A stretch of 64,000 bases of DNA from an uncultured bacterium (GTDB taxonomy: Bacteria; Patescibacteriota; Saccharimonadia; Saccharimonadales; DATKHC01). The notes under the pieces are model-generated. The model did no database searches, had not been told where the DNA came from, and was given only the letters and a program-made list of their open reading frames with translations. Shown one piece after another: positions 39,963-54,478 of this stretch; position 1 is the first letter of the stretch, and each line of letters starts with the position of its first letter. The position numbers were made by a program, and so were the translations under genes. The stretch spans positions 29,419-93,418 of the forward strand of contig OY969420.1 of NCBI GenBank assembly GCA_963699195.1, written 5' to 3'.

Positions 39963-39979
39963 GATCTCGTATATTCATA

Positions 39980-40441: not shown

Positions 40442-40903
40442 TTAAATGCCACTAATAGCGTTTTGGATTTGTGTCTCGATTTTGTTATATATGCCCGTTG
40501 GATGTAGAAAACCATAGTAATAAACTAGGTAGGCTACTACCAGAATTATAATAATAGTCAGGATTCTAATAATTACTACCCTCTTTCTAAATGAGAGTAG
40601 TGCTTGGCTATAAGCACTGTATTGGGTGCGATAATTATCAGGAGTACTATTTGTCTGTTCAGAGTGTGTAACTAAACTGCTTTGAATAACCGTTGGTTGT
40701 GCAGGTTTATCAGTGAGAGGATTAATTGCTCCAGGTTGGGCTTCTGCTGCCTGAACTATTTTTTCAGGTGTCGTATTAGATACAGGTATTTCAACCTTGT
40801 ATCCTGGCCCTTTACTGTTTACGGCCGGCGTTGTTGGTTGTTTACTTTGATCTTCCATATTAGCTCTAGCATAATTATTACATATTTTAAGCGTAGAAAT
40901 CAC
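40442..40903 (-). CDS. hypothetical membrane-anchored protein (likely start MEDQSK at ~40857)
   Basis: Hydrophilic N-terminal half with a single C-terminal TM segment VVIIRILTIIIILVVAYLVYYYG. Confidence 0.45.
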   Translation of the reverse strand: MISTLKICNNYARANMEDQSKQPTTPAVNSKGPGYKVEIPVSNTTPEKIVQAAEAQPGAINPLTDKPAQPTVIQSSLVTHSEQTNSTPDNYRTQYSAYSQALLSFRKRVVIIRILTIIIILVVAYLVYYYGFLHPTGIYNKIETQIQNAISGI

Positions 40904-40921
40904 TTTTAGGGTAATATTTAA

Positions 40922-40931
40922 GATTTGAACC
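40922..40931 (+). repeat. possible distal att remnant of island B
   Basis: GATTTGAACC matches the tRNA-Asp T-arm (53075-53084). It is intergenic, at the transition from backbone to accessory genes. Confidence 0.35.
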
Positions 40932-40951
40932 TATTTTATTAATGCACATGC

Positions 40952-41143
40952 TTGCTTTGTAGTCAAAGTGTTGCTATATGTATAGTAATGAAACTTATCT
41001 TGGCAATTCTAATTATAGTTATTGGATACGTCTATTTTCTAGACCACACTACAAACATAGTCCTTAACCAGGCTATGCAAGTTCATCATGTATATCAGGA
41101 TGCAGCTAATTATTCAGACAATTTAGCTAATAGTGCTCAGTAG
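40952..41143 (+). CDS. small TM protein (likely start MKLILAIL..)
   Basis: Track ORF with a single hydrophobic helix. Confidence 0.35.
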   Translation: MLCSQSVAICIVMKLILAILIIVIGYVYFLDHTTNIVLNQAMQVHHVYQDAANYSDNLANSAQ

Positions 41144-41146
41144 CCA

Positions 41147-42157
41147 TTAAGCTGCCGATAAGGAACTTAAGCCCGAGTATGCTTCAAGAGCCTTATCTTG
41201 GTCACCCTCATATATCTTCTCAATAATAAGGTTAGTAGCTTCCATGAAGTCCCTTGTTTCGTATGGCACTCTTGATAGTGCCGAATAAAGACCGGGGCTA
41301 AGAGCTTCAATTCGTTTTGCAAATTCTCTTAATCCTTCTATATCTGTCCTTGATTTAAGCATTGCATCAAATATTGCAGGGTCCTTAGCGATAAGTAATT
41401 CTATACCATAAGCCGAGTGTGATGAGACAGAAATTCCTATTTTATTTTTTTTAGATGATTTAACAAAAAAACTTTGTGGAAGCTTATATGGATTACCGTT
41501 CAAACTTAGCTCCTGAGAACCAGCCTTTTGTGGAAAGCCATTTGGCATAGCAAGTTCTTCAGTTACGTAGCGATGTTCCATTAGGCCCGCAAAACCCTCT
41601 TCAAAGAAAGATCCCCTTTCTTCACCATCGTTATCTTTAACAGAAAATCCACTTCTCAGTAACAGAGTGCCGATTTCACCCGATTGAGTCCGAGCAAGCC
41701 CTAGTGGTTTATTTTTTGCACTAGCATGGCCAATTTCGTGAACTAAAAGAGATTCGGTTAACTCTGGGCCGTTTGCAGCTTCCGCGGCTCTATTCCGAAC
41801 CACATAACTTAAATCTAATACTGCAAAGTATGCACCAGTAGTTTTGGCTTCATCACCCCCTGCACCACCAACCAAGTTTTCTAACGCTGGCATATCATTG
41901 CTATCAACGGCTATAAAATCATGCATTGGGAGACCATAGTGATCTAGGAACTTTGCAACCCGTCCGACATTTAGGCCAGTTTCTTCATGTCTAACCTCAT
42001 GTAATATCCTCGCGCGCATATCGCCATAATAACTTTCTACAGTTGCTACATCATTTGGGTCAGCCGGACCCGTATATGGATATTCAGCTTGTCCATCATA
42101 GAGAGATATGTAAGGTTGATTTCCTTTAGCGTACTCTGTTTGTTTACTTTCTGACAT
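41147..42157 (-). CDS. HExxH zinc-metallopeptidase-like protein
   Basis: 336 aa with the motif SLLVHEIGHAS. The promoter TTGACT-17-TAATAT lies 6 nt upstream of the ATG. Confidence 0.55.
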   Translation of the reverse strand: MSESKQTEYAKGNQPYISLYDGQAEYPYTGPADPNDVATVESYYGDMRARILHEVRHEETGLNVGRVAKFLDHYGLPMHDFIAVDSNDMPALENLVGGAGGDEAKTTGAYFAVLDLSYVVRNRAAEAANGPELTESLLVHEIGHASAKNKPLGLARTQSGEIGTLLLRSGFSVKDNDGEERGSFFEEGFAGLMEHRYVTEELAMPNGFPQKAGSQELSLNGNPYKLPQSFFVKSSKKNKIGISVSSHSAYGIELLIAKDPAIFDAMLKSRTDIEGLREFAKRIEALSPGLYSALSRVPYETRDFMEATNLIIEKIYEGDQDKALEAYSGLSSLSAA

Positions 42158-42163
42158 TATATA

Positions 42164-42192
42164 ATATTACCATAAAAGTAGCCCAAAGTCAA
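42164..42192 (-). promoter_or_regulatory. promoter TTGACT-17-TAATAT (leaderless-type)
   Basis: Exact hexamers. Only TATATA separates the -10 from the ATG at 42157. Confidence 0.55.
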
Positions 42193-42277
42193 TATTTAGG
42201 CATGTCCTCATTGGGTTAAAGTTAGAATTTTTAATAGAGTGCCCTGGTATGATTACTACTAATGCTAGACTAAGTCT

Positions 42278-43114
42278 ATGGAATACGGTATACCCTTTTT
42301 AGCAGCAATAGCTGTTGCTATTTGTAATGGTTTGGCAGCTGTACTTCAAAAAGTCAGCGCGAATAAGAAGCGTCTAGTAGTAACTCTTAATTTTGGCATC
42401 ATACTTGCTTTACTGCGAAATTGGCCCTACTTAGCTGGCACAATCTTAGATGTACTTGCAGGAGGATTTACTCTATTAGCCAGTCACACACTACCTCTAT
42501 TTTTAGTTCAATCACTTATAGCTACAAGCATTATATTCACTGCAATTTTTGAACGTGTAATTTTTAAGAAGAAAATAACGTTAAAAAGTCTATTAGCTAT
42601 GATTGTAGTTTTGATTGGCTTAGGAATGATTGCCGTTGCAACTCATTCTCACCAAGCAAATATAATTGGTAGTGCGTTTAAACTTATCCTGAGCATATCT
42701 CCATTAATAGTCATTGTAATTGGATTTTGGTGTTTGAAAACTAAAACACGATCAGCAAGTTTTGGGTTAGCCGCATTAAGTGGTGTTTGCTTTGGTATGA
42801 CTTCTGTTGGAGGTCGAATATTAATCTACCCTGATCCGGTTTGGCATATTGTTTCCAACATCTTAGCTTGGATAATTGTTATCTACGCAATCTTAGGTCT
42901 CTTTTTCTTTACTACAGCCCTACAGCGAATTTCTGCCACTGCAGTTAATAGTACGATGGTAGGCTTTCAGACAATTGTACCAACAGCTATTGGTATTATC
43001 TTTTTAGGCGATACTGCCCGGCAAGGTCGGTGGGCTCTTGTAGCCCTAGGAACAGTATTGGTGCTTATCGGTTGTCTATATGTTACATCAAGTTCACAGA
43101 GTAAATCTGTGTAG
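42278..43114 (+). CDS. polytopic membrane protein (DMT/EamA-like transporter)
   Basis: 278 aa with ~9-10 TM helices. It is the only plus-strand gene inside the array. Confidence 0.5.
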   Translation: MEYGIPFLAAIAVAICNGLAAVLQKVSANKKRLVVTLNFGIILALLRNWPYLAGTILDVLAGGFTLLASHTLPLFLVQSLIATSIIFTAIFERVIFKKKITLKSLLAMIVVLIGLGMIAVATHSHQANIIGSAFKLILSISPLIVIVIGFWCLKTKTRSASFGLAALSGVCFGMTSVGGRILIYPDPVWHIVSNILAWIIVIYAILGLFFFTTALQRISATAVNSTMVGFQTIVPTAIGIIFLGDTARQGRWALVALGTVLVLIGCLYVTSSSQSKSV

Positions 43115-43126
43115 TTGTAGTTCTTG

Positions 43127-43870
43127 CTAAGTTGTTGGCTGCCCAGCTTCAAACCATTCTCTAATTTGATTTGAGCGAGGCGCATCTGGATTTAAACGTG
43201 TCCAAGTTTCCAGCATTAAGAACATTAAGGCGTCATCATAGTCTCTATTTTCTAAGACATCTCTCCTTAAGTTCATTCGTTGCATTTTTGGTTCATCAGG
43301 TCTATTAGGATCGTAATATTTTTCTAAATCCTCTAATCCATATAACTGACAAGTACTAAAATCGCTATTACCACTTAATATGGCAGTTCTATTTGTTATT
43401 AGTGGCGATTTTTTCATAAAATCTAAACACAGTCTACACGGGAGCAAAGTCGTCGGTGTCTCTCCAAGGATTTCATCGAATTCAGGTTCACCCCATACAG
43501 TTAGTGCTGCTATATCCGTAAATCCCTTGTATTCTGCTCTTGCAATTCCCATTTCCTCGGCATGAATATTCATTTCAACACCGTTGTGGGTTCTCACATT
43601 ATATCCACCGACTATTCCATTCCTAGAATTATCTCTGTCCATACAATATGCTGCTGCACCGACGCGTTTATCACGCCAGGATGCTGCTTGGGCCCCTGCA
43701 ACTTCAGCACTTCGAATTAAAAACACTAGATTATTTATTGCTGACCAGCTTACTTGCCACTCGGTTAATTCAGGTGGATAATAGCCGTCCGTATCAAGGT
43801 TTGGCATTGTCATTTTAAGAAAAAGTTCTGGTACTTTAGTTAGCTCACTCATGAAATAAAAAAATACCAT
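43127..43870 (-). CDS. cytidine/nucleotide deaminase-fold (CDA) protein (likely start MSELTK at 43852)
   Basis: Zinc motifs HAEEM and PCRLC, separated by ~40 aa. Confidence 0.6.
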   Translation of the reverse strand: MVFFYFMSELTKVPELFLKMTMPNLDTDGYYPPELTEWQVSWSAINNLVFLIRSAEVAGAQAASWRDKRVGAAAYCMDRDNSRNGIVGGYNVRTHNGVEMNIHAEEMGIARAEYKGFTDIAALTVWGEPEFDEILGETPTTLLPCRLCLDFMKKSPLITNRTAILSGNSDFSTCQLYGLEDLEKYYDPNRPDEPKMQRMNLRRDVLENRDYDDALMFLMLETWTRLNPDAPRSNQIREWFEAGQPTT

Positions 43871-43889
43871 GTTTATGGTATTTTGTCCA
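43861..43889 (-). promoter_or_regulatory. promoter TGGACA-17-TATTTT
   Basis: The spacer contains the inverted repeat AAATACCAT-AAAC-ATGGTATTT. Confidence 0.4.
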
Positions 43890-43910
43890 ATTACTGGGCA
43901 TTGCTTAAGT

Positions 43911-44396
43911 CTACGTTGTGCTACCAGACTTGGGTGTAAGTGTAATCCCTAAAACCATAGCGCACATATGTTGTGCTGCAGGAGTACTTATTTCTTTTAT
44001 AGCATCGAGTGCTTCTTGACCAAGAACACCAGCAATAATCTTATCCTCAATTTGCTCGCCATCATACCTCATGCCTCGCTCTCCAATGAGTTGGCTTCTT
44101 AAGTTGTGAAGGCACGTTTCAGAGCTAACACGACCACTGTCAATTAGTGATCGTATCACAACTCCCCCTAAGAGAGCGCCCTGAAGAGCCGCATCAGCAC
44201 TTACAATGTCGTGCTCTTTTGCCGCTAAATCATACATTATCTCTGTTGCAGTTAATAAGGGTGTTAGGGTATCTCTTAGCCAAGCCTGCTCTTGTCGCCG
44301 GAAATCATTCGGTGGTAGACTTCTTGCCGTCTCTAGTGCAACCCTAATATCATCACCACCTATATTAATAGGACAAACTGAACCTTGATTAAACAT
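43911..44396 (-). CDS. hypothetical protein
   Basis: Intact 161-aa ORF with its own upstream AT-rich promoter-like region. Confidence 0.45.
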   Translation of the reverse strand: MFNQGSVCPINIGGDDIRVALETARSLPPNDFRRQEQAWLRDTLTPLLTATEIMYDLAAKEHDIVSADAALQGALLGGVVIRSLIDSGRVSSETCLHNLRSQLIGERGMRYDGEQIEDKIIAGVLGQEALDAIKEISTPAAQHMCAMVLGITLTPKSGSTT

Positions 44397-44478
44397 TTCT
44401 AAGTAAGTAAATAAGTTTACTTAGTAAATTGCAAGCATGAGTATAATTGTGAATTGCTACTAGAGAATTTTAGGATAA

Positions 44479-44754
44479 TCAATCTAACTTTGTTGGATCT
44501 GGATCTCCGCCCAGTTTAGTGCAAGTCCAATAATATAGATTAGCTCTAAATGTTTCTACAGGATTTTTCAATAATGCTCCTGCGCCACCGCCAGCTGCTG
44601 TAGCAACAATATCTTCTACAACATTCCCACCAAATTTTGTTGCTGCAGCTAATGCCAATGCGCCACCAATAGCCGCAAATACTACTCTAGGCGTATTGTG
44701 CCCATGCTCACCTTCTGGGTCGAATTGTCTTGAATATTCTCTAAACTCGGTCAT
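44479..44754 (-). CDS. small Gly/Ala-rich membrane protein
   Basis: 91 aa: VVFAAIGGALALAAATKFGG..AAGGGAGALL (glycine-zipper-like). Confidence 0.45.
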   Translation of the reverse strand: MTEFREYSRQFDPEGEHGHNTPRVVFAAIGGALALAAATKFGGNVVEDIVATAAGGGAGALLKNPVETFRANLYYWTCTKLGGDPDPTKLD

Positions 44755-44829
44755 TAACCAAAAATACTATATAAATAGCATTTTGAAAATTGATTATGCT
44801 TAGATTTAAGTAACTCCATTGGTTTAGGG

Positions 44830-45126
44830 CTATTTTTGTCCAGGTTTAGTATTAGGTGACACATTGTCGCCTTCAGAGTGATGTTGACCTACTTGATTAT
44901 TGTGGGCGCTACCTTCAATATGATCTATAGCTTCACTTATTGGGGTTGCAACCCAAGTTAATGGATTTGCTACTTCGACAGTTGGCTGCTTGGGGTGTTC
45001 TCCCTGATTATGAGCGACCTGTAAGCCAACTAAGCTTACAACCGCAAGTGTTAAACCGCCAATTGCCCTTTTTGTTCTAGCTGATAATTTATTTTTGTTT
45101 GGATCTATGGGATCTTTTTCTGACAT
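44830..45126 (-). CDS. small signal-anchored protein
   Basis: 98 aa with a TM segment AIGGLTLAVVSLVGLQV. Confidence 0.45.
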   Translation of the reverse strand: MSEKDPIDPNKNKLSARTKRAIGGLTLAVVSLVGLQVAHNQGEHPKQPTVEVANPLTWVATPISEAIDHIEGSAHNNQVGQHHSEGDNVSPNTKPGQK

Positions 45127-45128
45127 TT

Positions 45129-45566
45129 TTATTGCCCCCTAGCGACTAATATTCCTGGCTTTGTTGGCCTGGAAGTAGTTACTCTTTCGATATGGCTCTT
45201 GCCTTTATCCTTATCATCCCAAACTCTCGTGAATAAACCTAAGCTTTCATCACGCTTACCAAACTCACCTGAGTCTGTAGTATTTAGACCCCATATACTA
45301 GCTGTTTGTTCGGTACCATCCTGGTTATGTATTACCGTATCATTAGTCTCAATAAAAACAGGACCACCAACTTTACGTGCTAACCCTTCTAGTAAGTCTC
45401 TTCCTTCTGTGCCTGGTCTAGACATATCTATTACCATTCCATAACCTTCTTTACCACTCATCGCAATTGGCTTGAATGGGCTGCTACCAGGTATAGATTC
45501 CTGTTCACCAGTTTGAGTGCTGGCTTCTGATGGATTTAGTATTTTTGGTTCGGTTTCTGTAGTCAT
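45129..45566 (-). CDS. hypothetical protein
   Basis: Intact 145-aa ORF. Its stop lies 2 nt before the next gene's ATG, so the two form an operon pair. Confidence 0.5.
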   Translation of the reverse strand: MTTETEPKILNPSEASTQTGEQESIPGSSPFKPIAMSGKEGYGMVIDMSRPGTEGRDLLEGLARKVGGPVFIETNDTVIHNQDGTEQTASIWGLNTTDSGEFGKRDESLGLFTRVWDDKDKGKSHIERVTTSRPTKPGILVARGQ

Positions 45567-45593
45567 TTTTTGTTTTTCCTTTTTAGTTATATA

Positions 45594-45650
45594 TTTAAAG
45601 AGCTTACACTCATATTAGCATAAGCTTTACGATTTGTCAATATAATGGCT
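45594..45650 (-). repeat. 57-nt promoter repeat, copy 1
   Basis: 56/57 identical to 46595-46651. Confidence 0.8.
45612..45640 (-). promoter_or_regulatory. promoter TTGACA-17-TAATAT
   Basis: Part of the 57-nt repeat at 45594-45650. Confidence 0.6.
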
Positions 45651-45680
45651 GTAAGTTACTTTTGTATTTTGGAACTTTTA

Positions 45681-46226
45681 TTAATTTTCAGGTTCATGAA
45701 TTAGATGAGATAAATTACTCAAATCTGAACCAAGTTTCTTTGTAGAGGTTCCTTTTAAAGTCTTGCTCGAGGTTGTTACAAATTGTTTGAGTGACTCTAT
45801 TGTCCTAGTCCAATGATATAGATTAAATACTCTCGTAGGCACCTCAATAGCTGGTCTATCACCATCATTTAACCTTACCTTTTTAACTACTGCTGCTTCC
45901 CCTCCGTCTATGCACCAAGCTGGAACATTTGTGCCTTGATGAGTAGCAAATGCCATCAATACACCCTTTTCATCACCCTCTTTCATTAGACTTTCAAATT
46001 CTTGCCAGGCTGGGTCTAAGTAACCCTGTGCTAAGTTAGTTTCTGCCCCTGTTACTACCATTTGTAATTGTTCTCTGTCACTATCTGATAGATCAAAATC
46101 TCTTCCAAATAGAGCACCCGGCTCTAGGGCTTTTTGTGTGATTTGGCCAAGTCTCACCCTATCCAACTGACCTGCTGTTGAAAGTTCTGGAACATTTAAA
46201 TCGGGTTGTTCGGGAGTATTTGTCAT
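45681..46226 (-). CDS. hypothetical protein
   Basis: Intact 181-aa ORF. Confidence 0.5.
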   Translation of the reverse strand: MTNTPEQPDLNVPELSTAGQLDRVRLGQITQKALEPGALFGRDFDLSDSDREQLQMVVTGAETNLAQGYLDPAWQEFESLMKEGDEKGVLMAFATHQGTNVPAWCIDGGEAAVVKKVRLNDGDRPAIEVPTRVFNLYHWTRTIESLKQFVTTSSKTLKGTSTKKLGSDLSNLSHLIHEPEN

Positions 46227-46244
46227 TTGAATTTTTACTATGTT

Positions 46245-46574
46245 TTAAGACTCAGGTCGGCTCAGCATAGCCCCTAGTGCATCTGCTTCAGCTTGTCGGC
46301 GCAATAGCTCATGTGTCAATATCATTGTTCTATGAAGAGCTCTAATAGCATTATGGTCTGGATTTGGGCCCAGCATAGAGACTGCCAATACACCAACATT
46401 ATTGTATACTTCAGGATTATTAACCTGTAACCTTTCGTCTGCTTGGCCTATTACAGCATTGATCCCCTGTTCTTGAATATCGGCAAATATTGATTCTATG
46501 GTTACGCCAGACACTCTGGGAAGTTGATAGTCAGTAGGATTTTGAAATTCTGGTTTTTTATCTTTATCTGTCAT
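46245..46574 (-). CDS. hypothetical protein
   Basis: Intact 109-aa ORF. Confidence 0.5.
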   Translation of the reverse strand: MTDKDKKPEFQNPTDYQLPRVSGVTIESIFADIQEQGINAVIGQADERLQVNNPEVYNNVGVLAVSMLGPNPDHNAIRALHRTMILTHELLRRQAEADALGAMLSRPES

Positions 46575-46594
46575 TTTTTATCTTTATATTTTAA

Positions 46595-46651
46595 TTTAAA
46601 GAGCTTACACTCATATTAGCATAAGCTTTACTATTTGTCAATATAATGGCT
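46595..46651 (-). repeat. 57-nt promoter repeat, copy 2
   Basis: 56/57 identical to 45594-45650. Confidence 0.8.
46613..46641 (-). promoter_or_regulatory. promoter TTGACA-17-TAATAT
   Basis: Exact hexamers and spacing. Confidence 0.6.
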
Positions 46652-46686
46652 AGCAGAAGCTTTAGAATTGTGGAACAATTTTACTA

Positions 46687-47337
46687 TTAAGAACTCTCCG
46701 TATTCTTTGCTACACACCTTAGAATACTAGACTCTTGGCCATTATAAACTTCATCTATAACATCAAGGTGTTCAATTTGGAATAACCCGCTTAGCAATGT
46801 CCTAGTGTATGGCTTTGAAAACAGATGTCTCACATGTCCGCTATCGGATACGAAAATGTCTTTTTCTACTTCTTTCCCGTTACCAAGTTCTAGATTTTCA
46901 ACTGACTTGCATGCAAAAACTAGCAGTCCACCTACTTTTAAAACTTCTTTGATGTTTTTAACTATTCTTTTAGTGTCGTTATGACTGTAGTAGTGGAGGG
47001 AGAGATTGGCGAACACAACATCAAAACTATTGTCTGGGTAAGGTAGTACATTACGCATGTCGAGTACATCAAACTCTATCCCGCTGTCAGCAAGATATCG
47101 CCGGTCCTGTTCAATAACGACTTCGGAAGCATCCGTTGCAATTACGATGTGTCCGCGTCTGGTAAAAAACTCAGCGTCTCGGCCTACGCCACATCCAAGC
47201 TCAAGTACTTGTGAGTTATCAGCAAAATATTGCTCGGCAAGTTCGGCTAATGGACTAGGTTGGTTCCGCAATTTTTCATGGGCACCAGCTGCATGTTTAG
47301 CATCCCATACTGGTATTTGGTCTGGTATAGAAGACAT
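46687..47337 (-). CDS. class I SAM-dependent methyltransferase
   Basis: Motif I VLELGCGVGRD, post-I IATDASE, FDVVFAN. Confidence 0.8.
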   Translation of the reverse strand: MSSIPDQIPVWDAKHAAGAHEKLRNQPSPLAELAEQYFADNSQVLELGCGVGRDAEFFTRRGHIVIATDASEVVIEQDRRYLADSGIEFDVLDMRNVLPYPDNSFDVVFANLSLHYYSHNDTKRIVKNIKEVLKVGGLLVFACKSVENLELGNGKEVEKDIFVSDSGHVRHLFSKPYTRTLLSGLFQIEHLDVIDEVYNGQESSILRCVAKNTESS

Positions 47338-47351
47338 ATATATACCCTACC

Positions 47352-47375
47352 AAAAAAACACTTCTTAACGAAGTG
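47352..47375 (-). terminator. intrinsic terminator after the MazG-like gene
   Basis: CACTTC-GTTAA-GAAGTG followed by TTTTTTT on the minus strand. Confidence 0.6.
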
Positions 47376-47380
47376 CTTAC

Positions 47381-47417
47381 GCCTGGCAGGCCGTAGCACT
47401 GGAAGTCTGGAGCTATT
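47381..47417 (-). repeat. conserved island-B box, copy 1
   Basis: Minus strand AATAGCTCCAGACTTCCAGTGCTACGGCCTGCCAGGC. Its TAG is the stop codon of the upstream ORF. Confidence 0.7.
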
Positions 47418-48240
47418 TCTGCGCAGAGGGTGCTTCGGGATCAATAAATAAAGCTTTGAGTGCCTGGTCTTGATTTACATATTCATACGTAGCATTTACT
47501 ACCCATGGGCTTAGACGTTCCCTGCCCGAAGACGTACTTTGTCTTTGTTGGGCTTCGTCAACAACATGGGGGATTCGTGCACGATTCGCTAGCTTGTTTA
47601 AGGTATTTTCAATGCAGTTAGTCAAAAGTAGTCCTGTTTTATTTGCAATTATTCCCACATGCACAAGTAAATCGCTCAAGGTCTTGGACAAATCAGGCCT
47701 TTCAACTCCAATTCCTACCCATAAACCATCAGTCTTAGGGTTCAGTACATCAACAACCCTTAAAGTGGCTATAGCAAGTGATTCGAAGAGTTTATCATCT
47801 TCATCTGGCTTTATGGGGTTCCCATCAGGATCAAATATTGGGGTGAGTCCATCTAGAGCAGTTGGGTCAATAGCATAATCTTCCAGTAGGACTGGTGTAC
47901 CTGCGCTATCAGGCGGAGTAGGTTCAATATTTTTAAAACGAGCGATTTCCGATATATACCAAAGAACATCGCCAAGCTCCCCCTCAACTGCAACCGTGTC
48001 AGCAAGGTGATTGTCTGAGTAAAATGTAGCGGACTCTAAGAATTCAAAAGACTCTTCTAGTAACCCTTTCCTTAGCAGCAACTCTGGATCTGGGTAGTCT
48101 TCGTATTGAGCAAATACAGAAGTCATTCCGTATAGTTGACCCAAGCTAAGCTGAGGTGATTTTTCAAAAGGATTTGCCGTATTAGTGACTGTCTGCGAAG
48201 TGTCATTTAACGGATTCTCAGGCGTTGAAGTCATAAACAA
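47413..48240 (-). CDS. MazG-like nucleoside-triphosphate pyrophosphohydrolase (likely start MTSTPE at 48234)
   Basis: EESFEFLES .. EGELGDVLWYISEIA (ExxE..ExxD pattern). Confidence 0.6.
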   Translation of the reverse strand: MFMTSTPENPLNDTSQTVTNTANPFEKSPQLSLGQLYGMTSVFAQYEDYPDPELLLRKGLLEESFEFLESATFYSDNHLADTVAVEGELGDVLWYISEIARFKNIEPTPPDSAGTPVLLEDYAIDPTALDGLTPIFDPDGNPIKPDEDDKLFESLAIATLRVVDVLNPKTDGLWVGIGVERPDLSKTLSDLLVHVGIIANKTGLLLTNCIENTLNKLANRARIPHVVDEAQQRQSTSSGRERLSPWVVNATYEYVNQDQALKALFIDPEAPSAQK

Positions 48241-48280
48241 AAAAATACCATGGAAATACTATTTTGAAAAATGCTTACAC

Positions 48281-48317
48281 TTGACGGGCCGTAGCAATAG
48301 GAGTCTGGAACTACTAT
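48281..48317 (-). repeat. conserved island-B box, copy 2
   Basis: Minus strand ATAGTAGTTCCAGACTCCTATTGCTACGGCCCGTCAA. Confidence 0.7.
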
Positions 48318-49045
48318 TGTGGTGGCAAGTCAGAGAAATATTGGCCGGTTTTACGGATAAGCTCCGCTACTGGATTTTGAGCGAAAGCGAAAGGAGGAGA
48401 CAGCAGATCATTGAACCCTTCAAAGCCCACTTCGTTACTTACATTTGAGCCGAGAGGGGGAGTAATAATTTTGGTCTGATCGGCAATAATAAATGTTCCT
48501 AAGGGCATAGTCACCTGACCCCTTTTATTTAGCCCTACGCATGTTCGTTGCTCGATTGTGCCGGTTTTTAAATGGCCGATGGCTGGCTGCAGATGGTGCC
48601 AACTTAACCAGCCCAATTGTTCATTGTCCTGACTCGAGGTTCTAAAAGAACCCAAGCTACCGTGACCTACGAATGCCAATGAAGATACATCAGGGTCAGC
48701 AATAGTCTTGAGCACCTCTTGAGTCGAGGGGTCCTCTAGCAATAGGACTCTTTCGCAACCACGTAATGCTGTCTCGCGTTCGGCCACCTGAAGAGCATGG
48801 ACTTGGGCCGTTTCGTAATCTTTACCAGATTTTTGTTCACCCGCGTTAACCAAGATTGCAAACGAACCTCTCGCATCATCTACACCCAATCGTGAGGCAG
48901 CAAGCATTTCGGCGTGATTGGTGTGCTGTTTGAGCAAAACGGGTATACGGGTGTTAATTTTTCCTGATCTGCCCATAAAAATCCTTTCAGCGATAATCAA
49001 AATCAATTTAAAACAAAAAATACCATAAATATAGTATTTGGTCAA
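48314..49045 (-). CDS. hypothetical protein; possible minimal caspase/CHAT-like fold (likely start MGRSGK at 48976)
   Basis: LAFVGHGS followed ~40 aa later by IEQRTCVG (a His..Cys dyad pattern). This is speculative. Confidence 0.4.
   Translation of the reverse strand: MTKYYIYGIFCFKLILIIAERIFMGRSGKINTRIPVLLKQHTNHAEMLAASRLGVDDARGSFAILVNAGEQKSGKDYETAQVHALQVAERETALRGCERVLLLEDPSTQEVLKTIADPDVSSLAFVGHGSLGSFRTSSQDNEQLGWLSWHHLQPAIGHLKTGTIEQRTCVGLNKRGQVTMPLGTFIIADQTKIITPPLGSNVSNEVGFEGFNDLLSPPFAFAQNPVAELIRKTGQYFSDLPPQ
49017..49045 (-). promoter_or_regulatory. promoter TTGACC-17-TATTTT
   Basis: Lies directly 3' of box copy 3. Confidence 0.45.
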
Positions 49046-49056
49046 GCATATGTGTA

Positions 49057-49090
49057 ATGGCGGTTGTGGCTTTCCAGATTTGGAGCTATT
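49057..49090 (-). repeat. conserved island-B box, copy 3
   Basis: Minus strand AATAGCTCCAAATCTGGAAAGCCACAACCGCCAT. Confidence 0.6.
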
Positions 49091-49093
49091 TTA

Positions 49094-49348
49094 CTACTTT
49101 GGAGCCTCAAATATAGCCAAAGCAGCTAATTGACGTGTTTTAGCAGCCTCAACCTGCTCAGGAAAATCAGGACTAGATGTTCTCATATCTACATAATGTT
49201 CAGTGGCCATGCGTATTTCACCCGCCAATGATTCTTGATCAATTATTTGAAGACCACCTAGCTCAAATAATTGTTCGCCAGATAATCTAACGGTAACTGG
49301 TCGACCTGATTGCTTTACAAGTTTGTCTTGCGAGTCCGGAGTTGTCAT
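49094..49348 (-). CDS. ribbon-helix-helix (CopG/Arc-like) DNA-binding protein
   Basis: RPVTVRLSGEQLFEL..SLAGEIRMATEHYV fits the RHH beta-strand plus two-helix pattern. Confidence 0.5.
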   Translation of the reverse strand: MTTPDSQDKLVKQSGRPVTVRLSGEQLFELGGLQIIDQESLAGEIRMATEHYVDMRTSSPDFPEQVEAAKTRQLAALAIFEAPK

Positions 49349-49355
49349 ATTTTAA

Positions 49356-49384
49356 ACATTAACATCTTATTGGCATTTTGTCAA
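49356..49384 (-). promoter_or_regulatory. promoter TTGACA-17-TAATGT (leaderless-type)
   Basis: Only 7 nt lie between the -10 and the ATG at 49348. Confidence 0.6.
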
Positions 49385-49385
49385 T

Positions 49386-49420
49386 GTAGCGGGCTGTAGC
49401 TTTAGAAGTCTGGAACTATT
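49386..49420 (-). repeat. conserved island-B box, copy 4
   Basis: Minus strand AATAGTTCCAGACTTCTAAAGCTACAGCCCGCTAC. It abuts the -35. Confidence 0.7.
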
Positions 49421-49464
49421 TTGCTATAAATAACCTGCTAATCACTTAGTTTGCTAATTGTTAG

Positions 49465-49947
49465 TTATGGTTGCTCATATCCATTAGAAGCGTTAATGCC
49501 ATGACTTTCTGGCGGCATACTATCTCGTATTATGCCAGGTCCGCTAACGTTCTTACCAAATCCTGAAGAGCTACCAGTTCGAGGTTCTATTCCACCTTCA
49601 CCCGTTCCAGGAGAAGTTACATTGTTAGCAGTGGTACCAACAAGGTTTGCGGTACCCTCTGTCCATCCAGCGTTGCTACGAAGGTTTTGGCTCCTAGTCA
49701 CATCCGCAGTCTTACTCTGACCGATTCCAAAAATTTTCTTCATATGCTCTTTACCAATCAATGCATTCCCCGTCACACCGCTTGTAACTAATCCTGCTAC
49801 TGTTTCGGGCGTAAACCCAACTTCACCAATATGTTTATAAAAATATAGATTAGCTGCTACACAGGCAAACACACCAATTTGTCGAGCTACTCTTGCTTTC
49901 CGATTTGCACTTTCCGGAACTTCAATACTGTATAATTCATTATTCAT
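49465..49947 (-). CDS. hypothetical protein with one TM segment and a Gly/Ser/Thr/Asn-rich tail
   Basis: Intact 160-aa ORF. Confidence 0.5.
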   Translation of the reverse strand: MNNELYSIEVPESANRKARVARQIGVFACVAANLYFYKHIGEVGFTPETVAGLVTSGVTGNALIGKEHMKKIFGIGQSKTADVTRSQNLRSNAGWTEGTANLVGTTANNVTSPGTGEGGIEPRTGSSSGFGKNVSGPGIIRDSMPPESHGINASNGYEQP

Positions 49948-49971
49948 TTTTTGTTTTTACTTTACATAAAA

Positions 49972-50000
49972 ATACTACCATATATTTGGTAGTATGTCAA
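49972..50000 (-). promoter_or_regulatory. promoter TTGACA-17-TAGTAT
   Basis: The spacer holds the palindrome TACTACCA-AATATA-TGGTAGTA. Confidence 0.6.
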
Positions 50001-50004
50001 TTAC

Positions 50005-50040
50005 ATGGCGGGCCGTAGTGCAAGATATCTGGAACTACTT
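50005..50040 (-). repeat. conserved island-B box, copy 5
   Basis: Minus strand AAGTAGTTCCAGATATCTTGCACTACGGCCCGCCAT. Confidence 0.7.
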
Positions 50041-50142
50041 TAGCACCCAAGCGTCTGATATCTACTACCCTAAAATAGAAAACCGCCCAAGTTATGAGCG
50101 ATTATCTACACTTAAATTATCTTAAATATCTAAACTTTTAAC

Positions 50143-50601
50143 CTATTGCTTTGGTTGCTCAATGTTAATATGTACACCTTGAGCTTCAGCTTCTTGAATG
50201 GCTTGCTCATGATATTCACCTTGATGAGCAGTATAGTGGGCAGCACTAGTTTCTAAAGTGCTGTCATATGCACCCTGTGCTTGACTCTCGTTAATCTTTG
50301 CAACGTCTGCGGCATTTTGAGCCTTAGATTTTATGACTGCGGGAGCGTATTGTTCAGGAACATCAGTACCACCACCATACGGGTGACTCAATATGTCGTC
50401 TCTCCTACTAAAACGATAGTTAGGGTCATGTAGGTTACGAGTAGCTTCGTCCAACTTTTGTTCTGCTGCTTGGCTTTGATTTTGTCGCCATTCTAGCGTT
50501 TCACTATCTTGTTTGTGTTGTTTGTATAGGCTTTCTGCTTCAGAAGATAATTCGTGATTCATAATGTTACTTATACTAGCATAAGCTGTATGTTTTGTCA
50601 A
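50143..50601 (-). CDS. hypothetical hydrophilic protein (likely start MNHELS at 50562)
   Basis: The first 13 codons of the track ORF are the promoter TTGACA-17-TAGTAT itself. Confidence 0.5.
   Translation of the reverse strand: MTKHTAYASISNIMNHELSSEAESLYKQHKQDSETLEWRQNQSQAAEQKLDEATRNLHDPNYRFSRRDDILSHPYGGGTDVPEQYAPAVIKSKAQNAADVAKINESQAQGAYDSTLETSAAHYTAHQGEYHEQAIQEAEAQGVHINIEQPKQ
50573..50601 (-). promoter_or_regulatory. promoter TTGACA-17-TAGTAT (leaderless-type)
   Basis: 10 nt lie between the -10 and the ATG at 50562. It shares TAGCATAAGCT with the 57-nt repeat promoters. Confidence 0.6.
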
Positions 50602-50642
50602 CTTGACTTTTCATAGGTTATATTTTACATCACAATAATTAT

Positions 50643-51077
50643 ATGAGTTCAAAACTAAAACAATCAGGAAGACCAACCGTCCTTACTAAGCCAACTGTCT
50701 TGAAATTGGAACAAGCCCTGAAAGACGGTTTTAGCATTGAAATGGCTTGTTATGTATCTGATATTAGCCGTAGCACCTACTACGCCAATTTACAGACAGA
50801 TACGGACTTTATGAACAAAATGGAACTGGCTCAGTCATGGGCTACAGAACGTGCAAAACAAGTTGTTATCCAAGCTATTGATAAAGGCAACCTAAAAGCG
50901 GCTCAGTGGTGGCTAGAACGCAAGCTAAGAGCAGAATTCAGTCTTAACGCACCAACATTTGCTCAAGGTAACGGTGATAGCGACTTCGTAGACCAGTATT
51001 TTGACGGTAATCAGAATAAGTTCTTAGACTTTATGTCGCATACCATTGAAGCTATGCGAGAGCCTAGTAAATCGTAG
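50643..51077 (+). CDS. HTH DNA-binding protein (terminase-small-subunit/homeodomain-like)
   Basis: 144 aa: GRPTVLTKPTVLKLEQALKDGFSIEMACYVSDISRSTYY..AAQWWLERK. Confidence 0.55.
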   Translation: MSSKLKQSGRPTVLTKPTVLKLEQALKDGFSIEMACYVSDISRSTYYANLQTDTDFMNKMELAQSWATERAKQVVIQAIDKGNLKAAQWWLERKLRAEFSLNAPTFAQGNGDSDFVDQYFDGNQNKFLDFMSHTIEAMREPSKS

Positions 51078-51285
51078 TAAATAATATATCAAAATATATT
51101 TGCAAAGCACCATAGTAAGTATTACCATGAGCATAATATTTGGTGAGAGCTGGACACAGCTACTAAAACAAATAGGTTCGTTAGGTTAGTTGGGAGATAG
51201 AACAATAGGTCTAGTTAGTACGTTAACAGCAGCAGTTCTATTATCGTCCACGCAGATTGCAACATAAGAAACCTGCTCTTAATGT

Positions 51286-51552
51286 GTGCAGCAATCAACC
51301 GACACACCAGTTACAAAACTATTACCAGCCCATGCCACGCCTGAGCCTGGTTCAGTTCAACGTGGTCAATCTAAGTCCTTTGCAGACTTGCAACCAGGTC
51401 TTGAAAACATACATAAAATTAACGACCTGAACCCTGAGCAACAGAACCTATTTAACTTTCTCAAGTTAGTGGTTGATATTAAGTATCGCCATAAATATGG
51501 TGAGAAAATTGAGCAAAATAGTGGTAAAGGATATAGTACCTATGATGATTGA
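51286..51552 (+). CDS. small hypothetical protein upstream of the recombinase (possible directionality factor)
   Basis: 88-aa track ORF with a GTG start. No motif recognised. Confidence 0.3.
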   Translation: MQQSTDTPVTKLLPAHATPEPGSVQRGQSKSFADLQPGLENIHKINDLNPEQQNLFNFLKLVVDIKYRHKYGEKIEQNSGKGYSTYDD

Positions 51553-53101
51553 TATCCCAATACCAAAATCAAAATGTTACGTTTACTTACGCCGTTCTCA
51601 AGACCGAGATGACAGACAAGCACTTAGTTTGGATAAACAAGACCAGCAGGTTAAGCGAATTATTTCTGACAATAAGTTCTCTCCAATATACTTACCTGCC
51701 GAAGAACGTTCTGCTAAATATCCTGGTCGCCCTATTTTTGGTGATATGGTAAAAGGCATTGAAAATGGTGAAGCCCGCTATATAGCTGTTTGGCATATTT
51801 CTAGACTTAGCAGAAACCCAATAGATGGCGGTCAGATAATTTACCTACTGGATACAGGTAAGCTACTAGCAATTTATACACCTAATCGTGTTTACAGAAA
51901 CACACCAGATGATAAGGCATTTTTAGCCATTGAGCTTGCCTTTGCTAAGAAAAATAATGACGATTTAAGTGAGCAGGTTAAAGAAAGCTACGTTGTTAAG
52001 CGTCAACGTGGTGAGTATCCTGGCCCCGCTTTTTTGGGGTACATCAACATTATCGTTAGACCAGGTGTCCGCAATATCGCACCATGTCCAGAAGAAGGCC
52101 CCAAACTTTATGATGTATTTGTTTACGCTGCTACAGGTATGTACACGCTAGACGAAGTATGGAAGTACGCTCAAGACAGAGGGCTTAAATCACCAACTAA
52201 CCCTAACAACCTAATTGCTAAAACCACCTTAGAAAATGGGTTAAAAAGACGAGATTACACTGGTGTTTTCAAAAGAGGCGGTGCTGAATGGATACAAGGT
52301 AGTTACGAACCCCTAATATCAGTTGATTTATATGACAGAGTTCAAGCAGCTATGGGTTGGGCAAAACAACACAAAAACTACTCAACTAAAGGTGCTTTTT
52401 ATGCCTATAAAGGTGTCCCCCGTTGTGGAACTTGTAGCATGAATATTACTGCCTATACCAAGCCTAAAGTGCTTGCGACTACAGGTGAATTAGCAAGTTA
52501 CACTTTTTACGTCTGTACCAAAAAGAGTAAAACCATTAAGTGTAAAGAACCACAGCTTGCTGAACATGAGTTTACTGGCGTTATTAAAGACGAGATGTCC
52601 AACTATGAGATAACCGAAGCAGACGGCGAAGTGTGCAAGTTACTGGTTCATAACGTCTACGATGATTACATGAAAAGCCAGGACATATACAATGATGTCT
52701 GGAAGCATGACTTAAGACAGGCGGAGAAGGCTCTAGATGTTCTAGACGATAAATTAGAGCATGGTGTCATTACTGATGACCGCTACCAGCTTAGAGCAGC
52801 TAAACATCAAAGTATGGTGGTTAGAACTACCAAACTTCTTAACGGTTCTTCACAAGACGCCGAACGCTGGTTAGAACTATGTAATGAAACCTTTTCAGGT
52901 ATAACCAACATTGGCGAAGTATTTGAACTAGCAAATGATGAAGAACGCCGTCAGTTAATGCTGTATTTAGGTACGAACTGGACTTTAAGCAACAAAAAAG
53001 TGGCTCTAACAGCTAGAGAACCACTTAATATGCTACATAAAAATACCCGTAAATCGGATTGGCGGGCTCGACCGGATTTGAACCGGCGATCTCCTCCGTG
53101 A
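51473..53101 (+). CDS. large serine recombinase (integrase); likely start MMIDIP at 51542
   Basis: YVYLRRSQDRDDRQ..SLDKQ, VWHISRLSRN, Cys motifs CGTC..C..C. The last ~42 nt are antisense to the tRNA-Asp 3' half. Confidence 0.9.
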   Translation: MILSIAINMVRKLSKIVVKDIVPMMIDIPIPKSKCYVYLRRSQDRDDRQALSLDKQDQQVKRIISDNKFSPIYLPAEERSAKYPGRPIFGDMVKGIENGEARYIAVWHISRLSRNPIDGGQIIYLLDTGKLLAIYTPNRVYRNTPDDKAFLAIELAFAKKNNDDLSEQVKESYVVKRQRGEYPGPAFLGYINIIVRPGVRNIAPCPEEGPKLYDVFVYAATGMYTLDEVWKYAQDRGLKSPTNPNNLIAKTTLENGLKRRDYTGVFKRGGAEWIQGSYEPLISVDLYDRVQAAMGWAKQHKNYSTKGAFYAYKGVPRCGTCSMNITAYTKPKVLATTGELASYTFYVCTKKSKTIKCKEPQLAEHEFTGVIKDEMSNYEITEADGEVCKLLVHNVYDDYMKSQDIYNDVWKHDLRQAEKALDVLDDKLEHGVITDDRYQLRAAKHQSMVVRTTKLLNGSSQDAERWLELCNETFSGITNIGEVFELANDEERRQLMLYLGTNWTLSNKKVALTAREPLNMLHKNTRKSDWRARPDLNRRSPP

Positions 53102-53135
53102 CAGGGAGGCGTGATAACCACTTCACTACGAGCCC
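53060..53135 (-). tRNA. tRNA-Asp(GUC)
   Basis: Acceptor GGGCTCG/CGAGCCC, anticodon loop CTGTCAC, T-loop TTCAAAT, encoded CCA. Confidence 0.9.
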
Positions 53136-53217
53136 ATAGATCATGCAAAATCATAACAGTTTCACCCTTATAAAACAACTGTAATTGGGCTGTTTGTTAT
53201 ACTTAAAGTCTATTATT

Positions 53218-53293
53218 GCCGACATAGCTCAGTTGGTAGAGCGGCGCTTTCGTAAAGCGTAGGTCAGCGGTTCGATTCCGCTTGTCGGCTCCA
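53218..53293 (+). tRNA. tRNA-Thr(CGU)
   Basis: Acceptor GCCGACA/TGTCGGC, anticodon loop TTCGTAA, encoded CCA. Confidence 0.9.
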
Positions 53294-53303
53294 TCAATTA
53301 ATT

Positions 53304-53378
53304 GCGGGTATCGTATAGTGGTTAATATGCAGCCTTCCCAAGGCTGAGAGCTGGGTTCGATTCCCAGTATCCGCACCA
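53304..53378 (+). tRNA. tRNA-Gly(CCC)
   Basis: Acceptor GCGGGTA/TATCCGC, anticodon loop TTCCCAA, encoded CCA. Confidence 0.9.
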
Positions 53379-53381
53379 TAC

Positions 53382-54461
53382 TTAATTATTTTTATCTATC
53401 ATATTTTTTAAGGCCGATTGGCTTACCCTATACATTAATCTAATTTTTTGTAATCTTCCTCTTATATTTTCCGTAGGCCTGCCATCCGCACCATAAATTT
53501 CATCCAAATAACCAGATACGCCAAAAGGTATCTGAAATTCGTAGAAAACAATAGACTTTCTCATCTTGTCGAAATCATAGTCGCCATCAAACACGGTACT
53601 GTCTTTTACACCTACATCAAAACATAAGGTATTTAATCTGGTTCCGATATGCTCTTCCAGATCATTAATAAATCTACTCATAAAAGCATCCATACGAGTA
53701 AGTTCTGTCTCATCCGGTAATTTACCGTAGGCTCCATTGGAGATATTCCCACTCTCTGCTACTACAATTTCTTGATTCGATAAGCCAATCGAACTTGCCT
53801 TACTACCAATACTCTTTATTATCTTTGCCTTTCTATCCGCAGGTATGCTTGTACTTTCGAGAATTAGATCTCCTAAAGTTGAATAGCCATTGCCAATCAC
53901 AATTGGGCGAACCTTTTTATAAGCTACACGCCATACCTTATTTGGATCTTCACTATCTTTATGTGCGACATATCGCCAGTCCTGCTCTGGTGTCTCATCA
54001 CTCTGTACCAAAAAATCTTCCTCAGACGTAGATAACAATTCAGCTAGCGCTGCTCTATCTGTAAAAAGTCGAGTATCTCTACCGCCAACCCCAAATACGG
54101 GCTTAACAAAGAATGAAGGTTCATCCGGTAGCTCTAGGTCTATTGCTTCTACAATCTCATGAGCATCGGTGCCAGCTTGAATTAAAATGGAGCTTGGCGC
54201 CAAATAACCTAGTTGCCTTACCGTATACCCAAAACTTTGTTTTGAAGCAAGTTCTACGCCTACATCGCCATTGATAAATTGAAAAGCAAAAGCCTGTCCT
54301 TCACCAAAGGTTCCATTTCGAACCCTAAATGCATTAGGAATAGTTTGCCCAAATATTTTGGCAGCTTCTACCCACTCAGTACCTGATAGTGTAGGTATTG
54401 AAGCTATATCTTCATGAGGATATATGTGTTGCTGCTGATTGGTTTTTTGGTCCACTGTCAT
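53382..54461 (-). CDS. ATP-grasp-fold protein
   Basis: FFVKPVFGVGGRDTRLF, WRYVAHKD..VWRVAYKK, GNISNGAYG and YEFQIPFG match ATP-grasp core motifs. Confidence 0.6.
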   Translation of the reverse strand: MTVDQKTNQQQHIYPHEDIASIPTLSGTEWVEAAKIFGQTIPNAFRVRNGTFGEGQAFAFQFINGDVGVELASKQSFGYTVRQLGYLAPSSILIQAGTDAHEIVEAIDLELPDEPSFFVKPVFGVGGRDTRLFTDRAALAELLSTSEEDFLVQSDETPEQDWRYVAHKDSEDPNKVWRVAYKKVRPIVIGNGYSTLGDLILESTSIPADRKAKIIKSIGSKASSIGLSNQEIVVAESGNISNGAYGKLPDETELTRMDAFMSRFINDLEEHIGTRLNTLCFDVGVKDSTVFDGDYDFDKMRKSIVFYEFQIPFGVSGYLDEIYGADGRPTENIRGRLQKIRLMYRVSQSALKNMIDKNN

Positions 54462-54478
54462 TGGAATACATACTTGAA

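Follow-up and report, generated by a model that had tools for sequence, protein, structure and literature searches.

A composite cassette array at the 3′ tip of a Saccharibacteria tRNA-Asp gene, probably built by clade-specific large serine recombinases

Mycobacteriophages BPs and Brujita display integration-dependent immunity, with the attachment site located inside a gene, and integrases of the SSV1 type are split by integration; all of these systems employ tyrosine integrases. In the staphylococcal cassette chromosome elements SCC and SCCmec, pseudo-SCC units and tandem composite islands gather at one site (PMC6243372; bioRxiv 10.1101/336396). Sedentary chromosomal integrons have been described as defence biobanks (bioRxiv 10.1101/2024.07.02.601686), and 910 of 937 tycheposons use tyrosine recombinases (bioRxiv 10.1101/2020.12.28.424599). 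For Saccharibacteria and other members of the candidate phyla radiation (CPR), which have tiny genomes, few mobile elements have been described. Here, we analyze a 64-kb stretch (contig OY969420.1, positions 29,419 to 93,418, of assembly GCA_963699195.1; hereafter the window) from an uncultured member of the Saccharimonadales, in which the gene for a large serine recombinase runs into a tRNA-Asp gene and seven copies of a 38-bp site lie to its left. The region is probably a composite island at the 3′ tip of tRNA-Asp, built by large serine recombinases specific to Saccharibacteria. Such a cassette system seems undescribed for Saccharibacteria, Patescibacteria, or the CPR in the open-access and bioRxiv literature, and a description elsewhere is possible.

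The host target is tRNA-Asp(GTC) (53060–53135, minus strand), identified by ARAGORN and by the Rfam tRNA model (70 bits). On the opposite strand, the recombinase gene (51542–53101, plus strand) encodes 519 residues from an ATG or 542 from a TTG at 51473. Pfam assigns a Resolvase domain (PF00239, E = 1.3e-15, residues 36–181) and a Recombinase domain (PF07508, E = 1.8e-5), and PF13408 is recorded in many homologues. An alignment of 33 family sequences displays invariant S19 and R17/R18 in the YxRRSQ motif as well as invariant C295, C298, C325, and C334 in a Cys4 zinc ribbon. With this catalytic domain and a C-terminal domain bearing the Cys4 motif, the protein qualifies as a large serine recombinase. 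Among solved structures, SPbeta SprA/YokA comes closest (E = 3e-9, matching over residues 15–473), and the identity to yokA of SPbeta-type phages is ~23% by tblastn; exact-sequence look-ups starting from either start codon returned no match. The ORF closes with 14 codons, W R A R P D L N R R S P P stop (WRARPDLNRRSPP, then stop), that read tRNA-Asp in reverse complement, beginning at its CCA end (TGG, 53060–53062) and reaching the anticodon loop; the TGA stop (53099–53101) overlaps GAC. ARAGORN, Pfam, and these reverse-complement codons confirm what an initial annotation of the DNA had proposed, namely that a large serine recombinase ends within an opposite-strand tRNA-Asp(GUC). At the recombinase-side junction, the order is recombinase 3′ arm, core TGGCGGGC (53060–53067, plus strand), and tRNA body. 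The same 8 bp recur as a direct repeat at 50006–50013, and tRNA-Asp stays whole because the element brings an identical 3′ tip. Directly downstream of the tRNA-Asp CCA and inside the recombinase coding sequence lies a hairpin with a T-run, ATCCGATTTACGGGT ATTTTTATGT (53045–53059, minus strand), by which the element may provide a terminator for tRNA-Asp.

Overlap between recombinase and tRNA-Asp is a family trait. A protein search retrieved 555 homologues, and a metagenome scan retrieved 511 stretches with recombinase homologues; related loci are denoted here by L numbers. The best 120 of the 555 homologues, which are 45–94% identical to the window recombinase and come from Saccharimonadales or Patescibacteria, end in the tRNA-Asp-encoded WRARPD[LS]NRRS[PS]P in 95 cases. 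Ten more of the 120 break off at or just past WR, apparently at contig ends, and a handful diverge right after WR, for example into AVTSEVWNYF. The recombinase 3′ end overlaps an opposite-strand tRNA-Asp in 10 metagenome loci (L010–L019) and likewise lies within one in L003–L005, relatives of the 94%-identical recombinase. In relatives without the tRNA-encoded tail, the sequence departs immediately past TGGCGG, that is, past the complement of the CCA, the discriminator, and the first acceptor bases. This point of divergence argues for crossover at the tRNA tip and not in the middle of the tRNA; the crossover maps to TGGCGGGC at the CCA/acceptor end, with a core of 8–9 bp, TGGCGGRC(C). Recombinases of ~30% identity (L023–L089) were also surveyed, and in 54 of these loci the stop codon lies inside the contig. 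A tRNA overlaps the stop or lies at most 60 nt away in 40 of the 54, always on the opposite strand (40/40) and with 14 specificities (Asn, Gln, Leu, Glu, Arg, Lys, Val, Thr, Ile, Met, Cys, Pro, Ala, and Tyr). An open reading frame (ORF) that runs into a tRNA therefore characterizes the whole recombinase clade, whose members seem to have tRNA tips as their targets.

The DNA motif that codes for an alternative recombinase tail also recurs in intergenic gaps of the window. (In tblastn searches with short alternative tails, the VWNYF type was informative, and the DIESDFRT and SIKA types were noisy.) The resulting 38-bp site has the consensus TGGCGGRCCGTAGC-N5-ARGTNTGGAACTATTT, the first 8 nt of which are the tRNA-Asp tip. 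Seven copies were located by nhmmer between 45646 and 50043, all on the plus strand and all intergenic; the next-best match in the window has an E value above 3. A position weight matrix (PWM) trained solely on 15 sites from other genomes ranks the same seven sites 1–7 among ~128,000 positions, with scores of 44.8–5.5, whereas the background does not exceed 0. Leftward from the recombinase, these are site 1, consisting of core and right arm (50006–50043; PWM 42.5, nhmmer E = 2e-9); site 2 (49387–49424; 44.8, 3e-10); the part-decayed site 3, with its core TGGCGG at 49058 (49057–49094; 8.6 in full and 18.0 for the distal half, 4e-5); site 4 (48282–48319; 35.1, 8e-9); site 5 (47384–47421; 41.0, 1e-9); the decaying site 6 (46647–46684; 21.8, 5e-7); and site 7, the most decayed recognizable copy (45646–45683; 5.5 against a background maximum of ~0, 3e-3). 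A stretch at 40902–40939 (plus strand) that contains GATTTGAACC went undetected by the full-site nhmmer model and gave the second-best non-site match of the 128,000 positions to the distal half of the PWM (10.6). Not significant alone, this match is suggestive of a decayed outermost site.

Every site closely follows the 3′ end of one minus-strand gene, and most also adjoin the promoter of the next gene. Promoters were predicted by a scan for a sigma-70-like consensus, and the strongest minus-strand matches (TTGACA, 17 nt, TAnnAT, with TG; 10/12) start at 50000, 46641, and 45640, at sites 1, 6, and 7, respectively; a weaker match (9/12 with TG) starts at 49045 beside site 3. Upon hairpin folding, five of six sites were no better than shuffled sequences (z from −1.1 to +1.3). 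Relative to its place in the tRNA, a TTGAAC-like motif of the right arm lies ~6 bp further out, possibly echoing the known attP/attB offset. Some left arms contain palindromes of 7–10 bp over the promoter spacer and −10 element (49972–49995, 46602–46627, and 47356–47378 in the window, and sites in L010 and L097). One example is ATACTACCA-N6-TGGTAGTAT, one half of which resembles the right-arm motif TGGAACTAT. Such palindromes could be operators or additional sites for the recombinase or for a helix-turn-helix protein.

The right arms of 27 sites, when read in the recombinase frame, vary in a codon-like manner, with changes across positions 20–36 confined almost entirely to third codon positions. 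Third codon positions within positions 19–36 account for 43 of the 71 minor alleles: position 24 accepts any base (Val, GTN), positions 30, 33, and 36 are restricted to C or T (Asn, Tyr, and Phe), and position 21 is A or G in 25 sites and T in 2 (Glu/Gln), with the Trp codon invariant. That variation follows codon degeneracy argues for selection of the right arms as the coding sequence of a recombinase tail, and the absence of a codon pattern in the proximal 14 nt fits a DNA-level constraint there. The right arm would code for the tail only when joined to the recombinase, as in a circle, and the tail swap may regulate the recombinase between its excised and integrated states.

The joined form is found in relatives. 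L091, whose recombinase is 58% identical to that of the window, is 5,759 bp long with a 30-nt exact terminal overlap, implying a circle of 5,729 bp, and L090, from an independent sample and assembly, matches it at 100% identity as a circular permutation. The recombinase ORF of each runs from TGGCGG directly into the right arm, and the circle possesses two additional sites, each followed by one minus-strand gene. L092, with a terminal overlap of 27 nt, is probably another circle. Comparison of sites between genomes also revealed exchange of partners. Site 1 (at 50004 in the window) shares a 50-nt left arm with L095 at 98% identity, whereas the right arms are 53% identical and the genes downstream of the common left arm are unrelated. 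Conversely, the core and right arm of site 1 are identical over 33 nt to those at L003:8430, while the left arms are unrelated, and a three-way alignment places the switch exactly at TGGCGG. An internal site of L016 and the recombinase-end site of L009 have right arms that are 80% identical. These alignments indicate that left and right arms re-assort at the core TGGCGG between genomes. Among the more distant recombinases, L045 contains an 8-nt tRNA-Asn tip repeated 4.8 kb to the left and followed by a right-arm-like motif.

The unit now bounded by intact sites spans 3.06 kb from site 1 to the tRNA tip (50006–53067). Besides the recombinase, it comprises a small minus-strand gene, a gene for a helix-turn-helix protein, and an 88-aa ORF. 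The small cargo gene (50143–50601 in the ORF list, minus strand; promoter 50601–50573, 10/12 with TG) probably starts at an ATG near 50562. The 144-aa helix-turn-helix protein (50643–51077, plus strand), a cargo type already proposed in the initial annotation, resembles small terminase subunits and DUF5681 proteins, with matches to phrog_4102 (E = 3.9e-16) and Pfam Sf6_terminase (3e-3). It is 84% identical in L003, and a DUF5681 gene occupies the same position in circle L091. The conserved 88-aa ORF (51286–51552, plus strand) overlaps the recombinase start and has tblastn matches in 17 loci (44–88% identity), and in L003, L090, and L092 an equivalent gene of 81–91 aa precedes the recombinase; the ORF lacks a Pfam match, and its product is a candidate accessory or directionality factor. 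The core module (50572–53136) is 88% identical to L003, where homology begins at 50572, versus 67–71% for the flanking backbone, which suggests that the module moved by horizontal transfer. The L003 cargo to the left of the module is entirely different from that of the window. The arrangement recurs in L003, L009, L010, L011, L014, L016, and L018, each of which has one strong site 3–7 kb leftward of where the recombinase ends.

In related genomes, the target site is empty or differently occupied (L095, L097, and L003). L095 (GCA_038317055.1), whose backbone is 75–80% identical to the window at the nucleotide level, retains the tRNA-Asp/Thr/Gly-SurA locus without the recombinase. Two genes and one site stand beside its tRNA-Asp, and a promoter-type left arm directly abuts TGGCGGGC and the tRNA, which is the structure expected after excision of the recombinase core. 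L097 (GCA_036513015.1) contains seven sites between tRNA-Asp and tRNA-Thr (nhmmer E values from 0.13 to 3e-10), again with no recombinase. The comparison with related genomes proposed in the initial annotation thus yielded two recombinase-free tRNA-Asp loci and a left limit of synteny at ~40.3–40.9 kb, and its central claim, that a large serine recombinase links mobile accessory DNA to tRNA-Asp, is supported. The order of tRNA-Asp, tRNA-Thr, and tRNA-Gly and their orientation relative to the array vary among the window (53060–53378), L003, L097, L011, L013, L012, and L095, which requires nested inversions ending at the array or at the tRNAs. In L099, part of the tRNA-Asp tip also recurs in inverted and decayed form (~3506–3535), 37 nt from a site. 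These inversions may be mediated by the recombinase.

In the mechanism that we favor, the mobile unit would be a small circle with opposite-strand cargo (one gene or a few) in addition to the helix-turn-helix gene, the 88-aa gene, and the recombinase. Its attachment site would lie within the 3′ end of the recombinase ORF and consist of the recombinase arm, the core TGGCGGRC(C), and the ~30-bp right arm CGTAGC-N5-ARGTNTGGAACTATTT. Recombination between this site and the identical core at the tRNA-Asp tip would insert the circle with the tRNA kept intact and would swap the recombinase C-terminus from WR-AVxx(E/Q)VWNYF in the circle to WR-ARPDLNRRSPP in the chromosome. Each integration would leave a distal junction made of left arm, core, and right arm, and the recombinase-proximal junction could pair with any such distal junction, so that either the 3-kb core alone or the core with extra cassettes could be excised. 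Repeated cycles would then build an array of single-gene cassettes, most with their own predicted promoter beside the core. The youngest cassettes would lie nearest the recombinase, distal sites would decay, and recombinase-less arrays would stay behind once the core had left. The window copy may still be active, and its cassettes may move individually. A stronger version, which we regard as tentative, is that of a serine-recombinase counterpart of the integron, in which cassettes (right arm, gene, and left arm with promoter) would be individually captured, shuffled, and shed at tRNA tips by a recombinase acting in cis or in trans, with the tail serving as an integration sensor or directionality switch.

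Several observations weigh against the composite island assembled in this way. Site quality is not monotonic with distance from the recombinase, site 3 being weak, and the block at 40904–45645 lacks significant sites, and two of its genes lie on the plus strand. At internal sites, the left arms are unlike the recombinase 3′ arm, and inspection by eye for inverted-repeat symmetry between the left arms (recombinase 3′ or internal) and the right arm gave nothing clear; with dissimilar left arms and no clear symmetry, binding by a canonical large-serine-recombinase dimer is hard to account for. (A short TACGG/CCGTA symmetry between arms was seen by eye at some loci.) The model also gives no account of how a gene first entered between two sites. 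Tandem duplication could yield the same "circular" assemblies; in either case, recombination at the core produced the junction between recombinase arm and right arm. Finally, the recombinase core of L101 adjoins neither a tRNA nor a right arm. On this 345-kb contig (11480–11530), the core past the recombinase continues as TGGCGG|AGTATAAAGG and then into backbone genes (aldolase, UvrB), which may reflect a rearrangement or use of a secondary site.

The internal sites could instead be inert scars of whole elements that integrated repeatedly, the older ones having lost their recombinase modules by deletion, in which case cassettes would not move singly. This reading, which we consider unlikely, fits the greater degeneracy of the most distal sites, and successive integrations that deepen tRNA islands are documented for tycheposons (bioRxiv 10.1101/2020.12.28.424599). 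It does not, however, sit well with one gene per site, a conserved promoter-bearing left arm next to the core, and the absence of recombinase remnants, nor with multi-site arrays inside a circular element. Furthermore, the recombinase-less L097 keeps seven sites, the better-scoring copies keep the codon-degenerate pattern, and one left arm is joined to different right arms and vice versa. Gradual assembly by repeated cycles at the core is also preferred to the architecture of the initial annotation, a single ~12.2-kb element that replaced the tRNA 3′ half and left the displaced, decayed half at 40922. The proposed copy of the tRNA T-arm, GATTTGAACC, is present at 40922–40931 as an exact 10-mer in the gap where backbone synteny ends, but it occurs at chance frequency: the window contains two tRNA 10-mers, whereas shuffled sequences average 5.0 and reach at least 2 in 92% of cases, and the flanks at 40922 match the tRNA in register at 14 of 75 positions (19%). 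What had been taken for GC-to-AT decay of a displaced tRNA is merely the contrast of an AT-rich spacer with a GC-rich tRNA. The divergence points and re-assortment of arms put the crossover at the CCA/acceptor tip, TGGCGGRC(C), so no tRNA half would be displaced, and seven internal sites split the region. A single element of this kind is therefore highly improbable. The ~12-kb extent itself (~40.9–53.07 kb) holds as that of a composite array, given the seven sites and the finding of its leftmost cargo gene as a cassette elsewhere.

Two further readings assign the recombinase a different role. If the region were a phage satellite resembling a phage-inducible chromosomal island (PICI), the small-terminase-like helix-turn-helix protein would redirect helper-phage packaging, with the recombinase serving merely to integrate the element. 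The match of this protein to a "terminase small subunit" PHROG (3.9e-16) and the existence of small tRNA-targeting elements with terS speak for such a satellite, which is nevertheless very unlikely. The core is only 3 kb, and the phrog_4102 match is confined to the DNA-binding N-terminal part of the protein. Other phage-related families were not found with Pfam or PHROGs, and in agreement with the initial annotation no capsid, portal, large terminase, relaxase, or type IV secretion system family occurs among the scanned proteins (20 scanned with Pfam, 10 with PHROGs). Searches of IMG/VR with the recombinase and with the site pattern gave no match. The recombinase family is widespread and strongly conserved in Saccharimonadales, as might befit a domesticated host enzyme accompanied by regulatory intergenic repeats, neither of them mobile. 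Against domestication stand the missing recombinase at the same locus in L095 and L097, the 88% identity of the module to L003 versus ~70% for the backbone, the circular form in a relative, and the re-assortment of arms at the core; we give this idea almost no credence.

Among described systems, SCC and SCCmec, integrons, and tycheposons are the closest analogues of the composite island. In SCC, serine recombinases (CcrAB, CcrC) insert a circle into a housekeeping gene at its 3′ end, as is proposed for the circle here; an intact target gene, short flanking direct repeats, and tandem units at one site, some of them recombinase-less, are found in both. The differences are that SCC targets rlmH/orfX and not a tRNA tip, and that its units measure tens of kilobases, compared with single genes of 0.3–1.1 kb here, most with their own predicted promoter. 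In addition, the island has its attachment site within the recombinase ORF, the host is a Saccharibacterium with a genome of ~0.78 Mb, and the window recombinase is far from characterized ones, as measured against SPbeta SprA (~23%). Integrons, together with clusters of attC sites lacking integron-integrases (CALIN), likewise display mostly single-gene cassettes with one conserved site each and a recombinase at one end of the array. They also include recombinase-less arrays (here L097 and L095) and a cargo that is largely of unknown function, defence-like, or nucleotide-modifying. The island's sole recombinase, however, is of the serine type and not the tyrosine recombinase IntI; its 38-bp sites are of the duplex type without a consistent hairpin, unlike attC; and most cassettes have their own predicted promoter in place of a shared Pc, in an array anchored to a tRNA gene.

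Prochlorococcus tycheposons are likewise small cargo elements at tRNA genes of a streamlined genome, with successive integration, inward decay, and terS in some (bioRxiv 10.1101/2020.12.28.424599). They duplicate a partial tRNA, compared with 8–9 bp here, and many carry replication modules, whereas Pfam scans of this island found no primase, helicase, or polymerase family; a periodicity of single-gene cassettes is not described for them. As in the BPs, Brujita, and SSV1 systems, the state of recombination would rewrite the 3′ end of a gene and thereby encode whether the element is integrated or free. The gene affected there is a repressor or a split integrase, whereas here a serine recombinase swaps only its own last 12–35 residues, and codon-degenerate conservation alone hints at a functional consequence. 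If the proposed mechanism is correct, Saccharibacteria would possess a dedicated and widespread gene-acquisition system (555 homologues; 511 metagenome stretches), and cassette arrays of the integron/SCC type would have evolved independently on a serine-recombinase chassis at tRNA tips. The codon-degenerate arm raises the idea that the recombinase senses its integration state via its C-terminus. The compact recombinase, with ~40-bp sites and a natural tRNA-Asp landing pad, is a candidate tool for Saccharibacteria genetics, and the varied tRNA specificities of the clade would offer a panel of orthogonal integrases.

To the left of site 1, the interval 45646–50005 reads as an array of at least six further site-bounded cassettes, all with minus-strand genes. 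These encode proteins of 160 aa (49465–49947), 84 aa (49094–49348), and 243 aa (48314–49045), a MazG-like protein (47413–48240; Pfam 5e-7), an S-adenosylmethionine (SAM) methyltransferase (46687–47337; Pfam 1e-20, PADLOC mad2 4.8e-19), and a gene pair (46245–46574 and 45681–46226). The GC content reaches 44.6–44.8% at 47001–49000, within the central cassettes, versus ~32–41% in neighboring kilobases, which fits a foreign origin. Further left, an older accessory block without recognizable sites (40904–45645), the sites there having presumably decayed, contains a 63-aa ORF and the gene for an HExxH protein (41147–42157). The block also contains a DMT-like gene (42278–43114, plus strand; EamA/DMT 1e-3, weak), a deaminase-like gene (43127–43870; cytidine-deaminase fold 5e-5, below the Pfam cut-off), and four small genes up to 45566. 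Pfam bears out the methyltransferase and MazG-like calls of the earlier cargo list, and the HExxH motif is visible as HEIGH. The cytidine deaminase and DMT calls have weak Pfam scores, with HAEE and PCxxC motifs present for the former, and the proposed ribbon-helix-helix protein has no family match.

The full-site model found no site in 40.9–45.6 kb, and faint resemblances noted by eye near 44.80 and 42.20 kb are not claimed as sites. Genes of the older block have no homologue in any syntenic locus. The HExxH gene, for which there are only 15 homologues, forms a cassette between two sites in L097 and lies 1 kb from a recombinase in L099 with a site at its 3′ end. Homology between the L097 and L099 copies spans the gene and stops at the downstream site, and the gene with its downstream site has different neighbors in the window, L097, and L099. 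The 40.9–45.6 kb block is thus best read as an older array whose sites have decayed. To its left, the backbone at 38474–40336 (a glycosyltransferase and a 118-aa membrane protein) is syntenic in L095, L097, L099, L011, L013, and L018. In those same loci, 40442–50601 has no synteny except a weak 30% match of a 153-aa protein in L095, and backbone synteny resumes at ~40.3–40.9 kb. The cargo near sites in relatives (L009 8909–10960, L003 5667–6910, L101 6457–8661, and L092 124–798) includes ThsB-TIR, SLATT, PGDYG, NUDIX, GIY-YIG, SRAP, and methyltransferase proteins, and the arrays may be enriched in defence or nucleotide-modifying genes.

Other features of the flanks were also observed. To the right of the tRNA cluster, two minus-strand genes (53382–55216; 359 and 245 aa, without family matches) stand between tRNA-Gly and a SurA-like gene. 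In L095 SurA directly follows tRNA-Gly, which makes these two genes a second small insertion, again at the 3′ end of a tRNA. A search for a bounding repeat of the tRNA-Gly 3′ end gave nothing convincing, and the sole match of the 359-aa protein in genome contigs was at 30% identity in an unrelated metagenome-assembled genome. On the left, a family-2 glycosyltransferase (38474–39962, minus strand) is divided into three ORFs of 282, 101, and 99 aa. Its counterpart in L095, L097, and L099 is undivided (536–545 aa), and in L011 the three matching segments share a frame; the split gene is a pseudogene or a sequencing error. Elsewhere in the window, a second, shorter serine recombinase (26543–27094, minus strand) with a resolvase domain only is 27% identical to residues 5–184 of the island recombinase and lies ~1 kb from tRNA-Pro (25465–25541), where it may mark another island.

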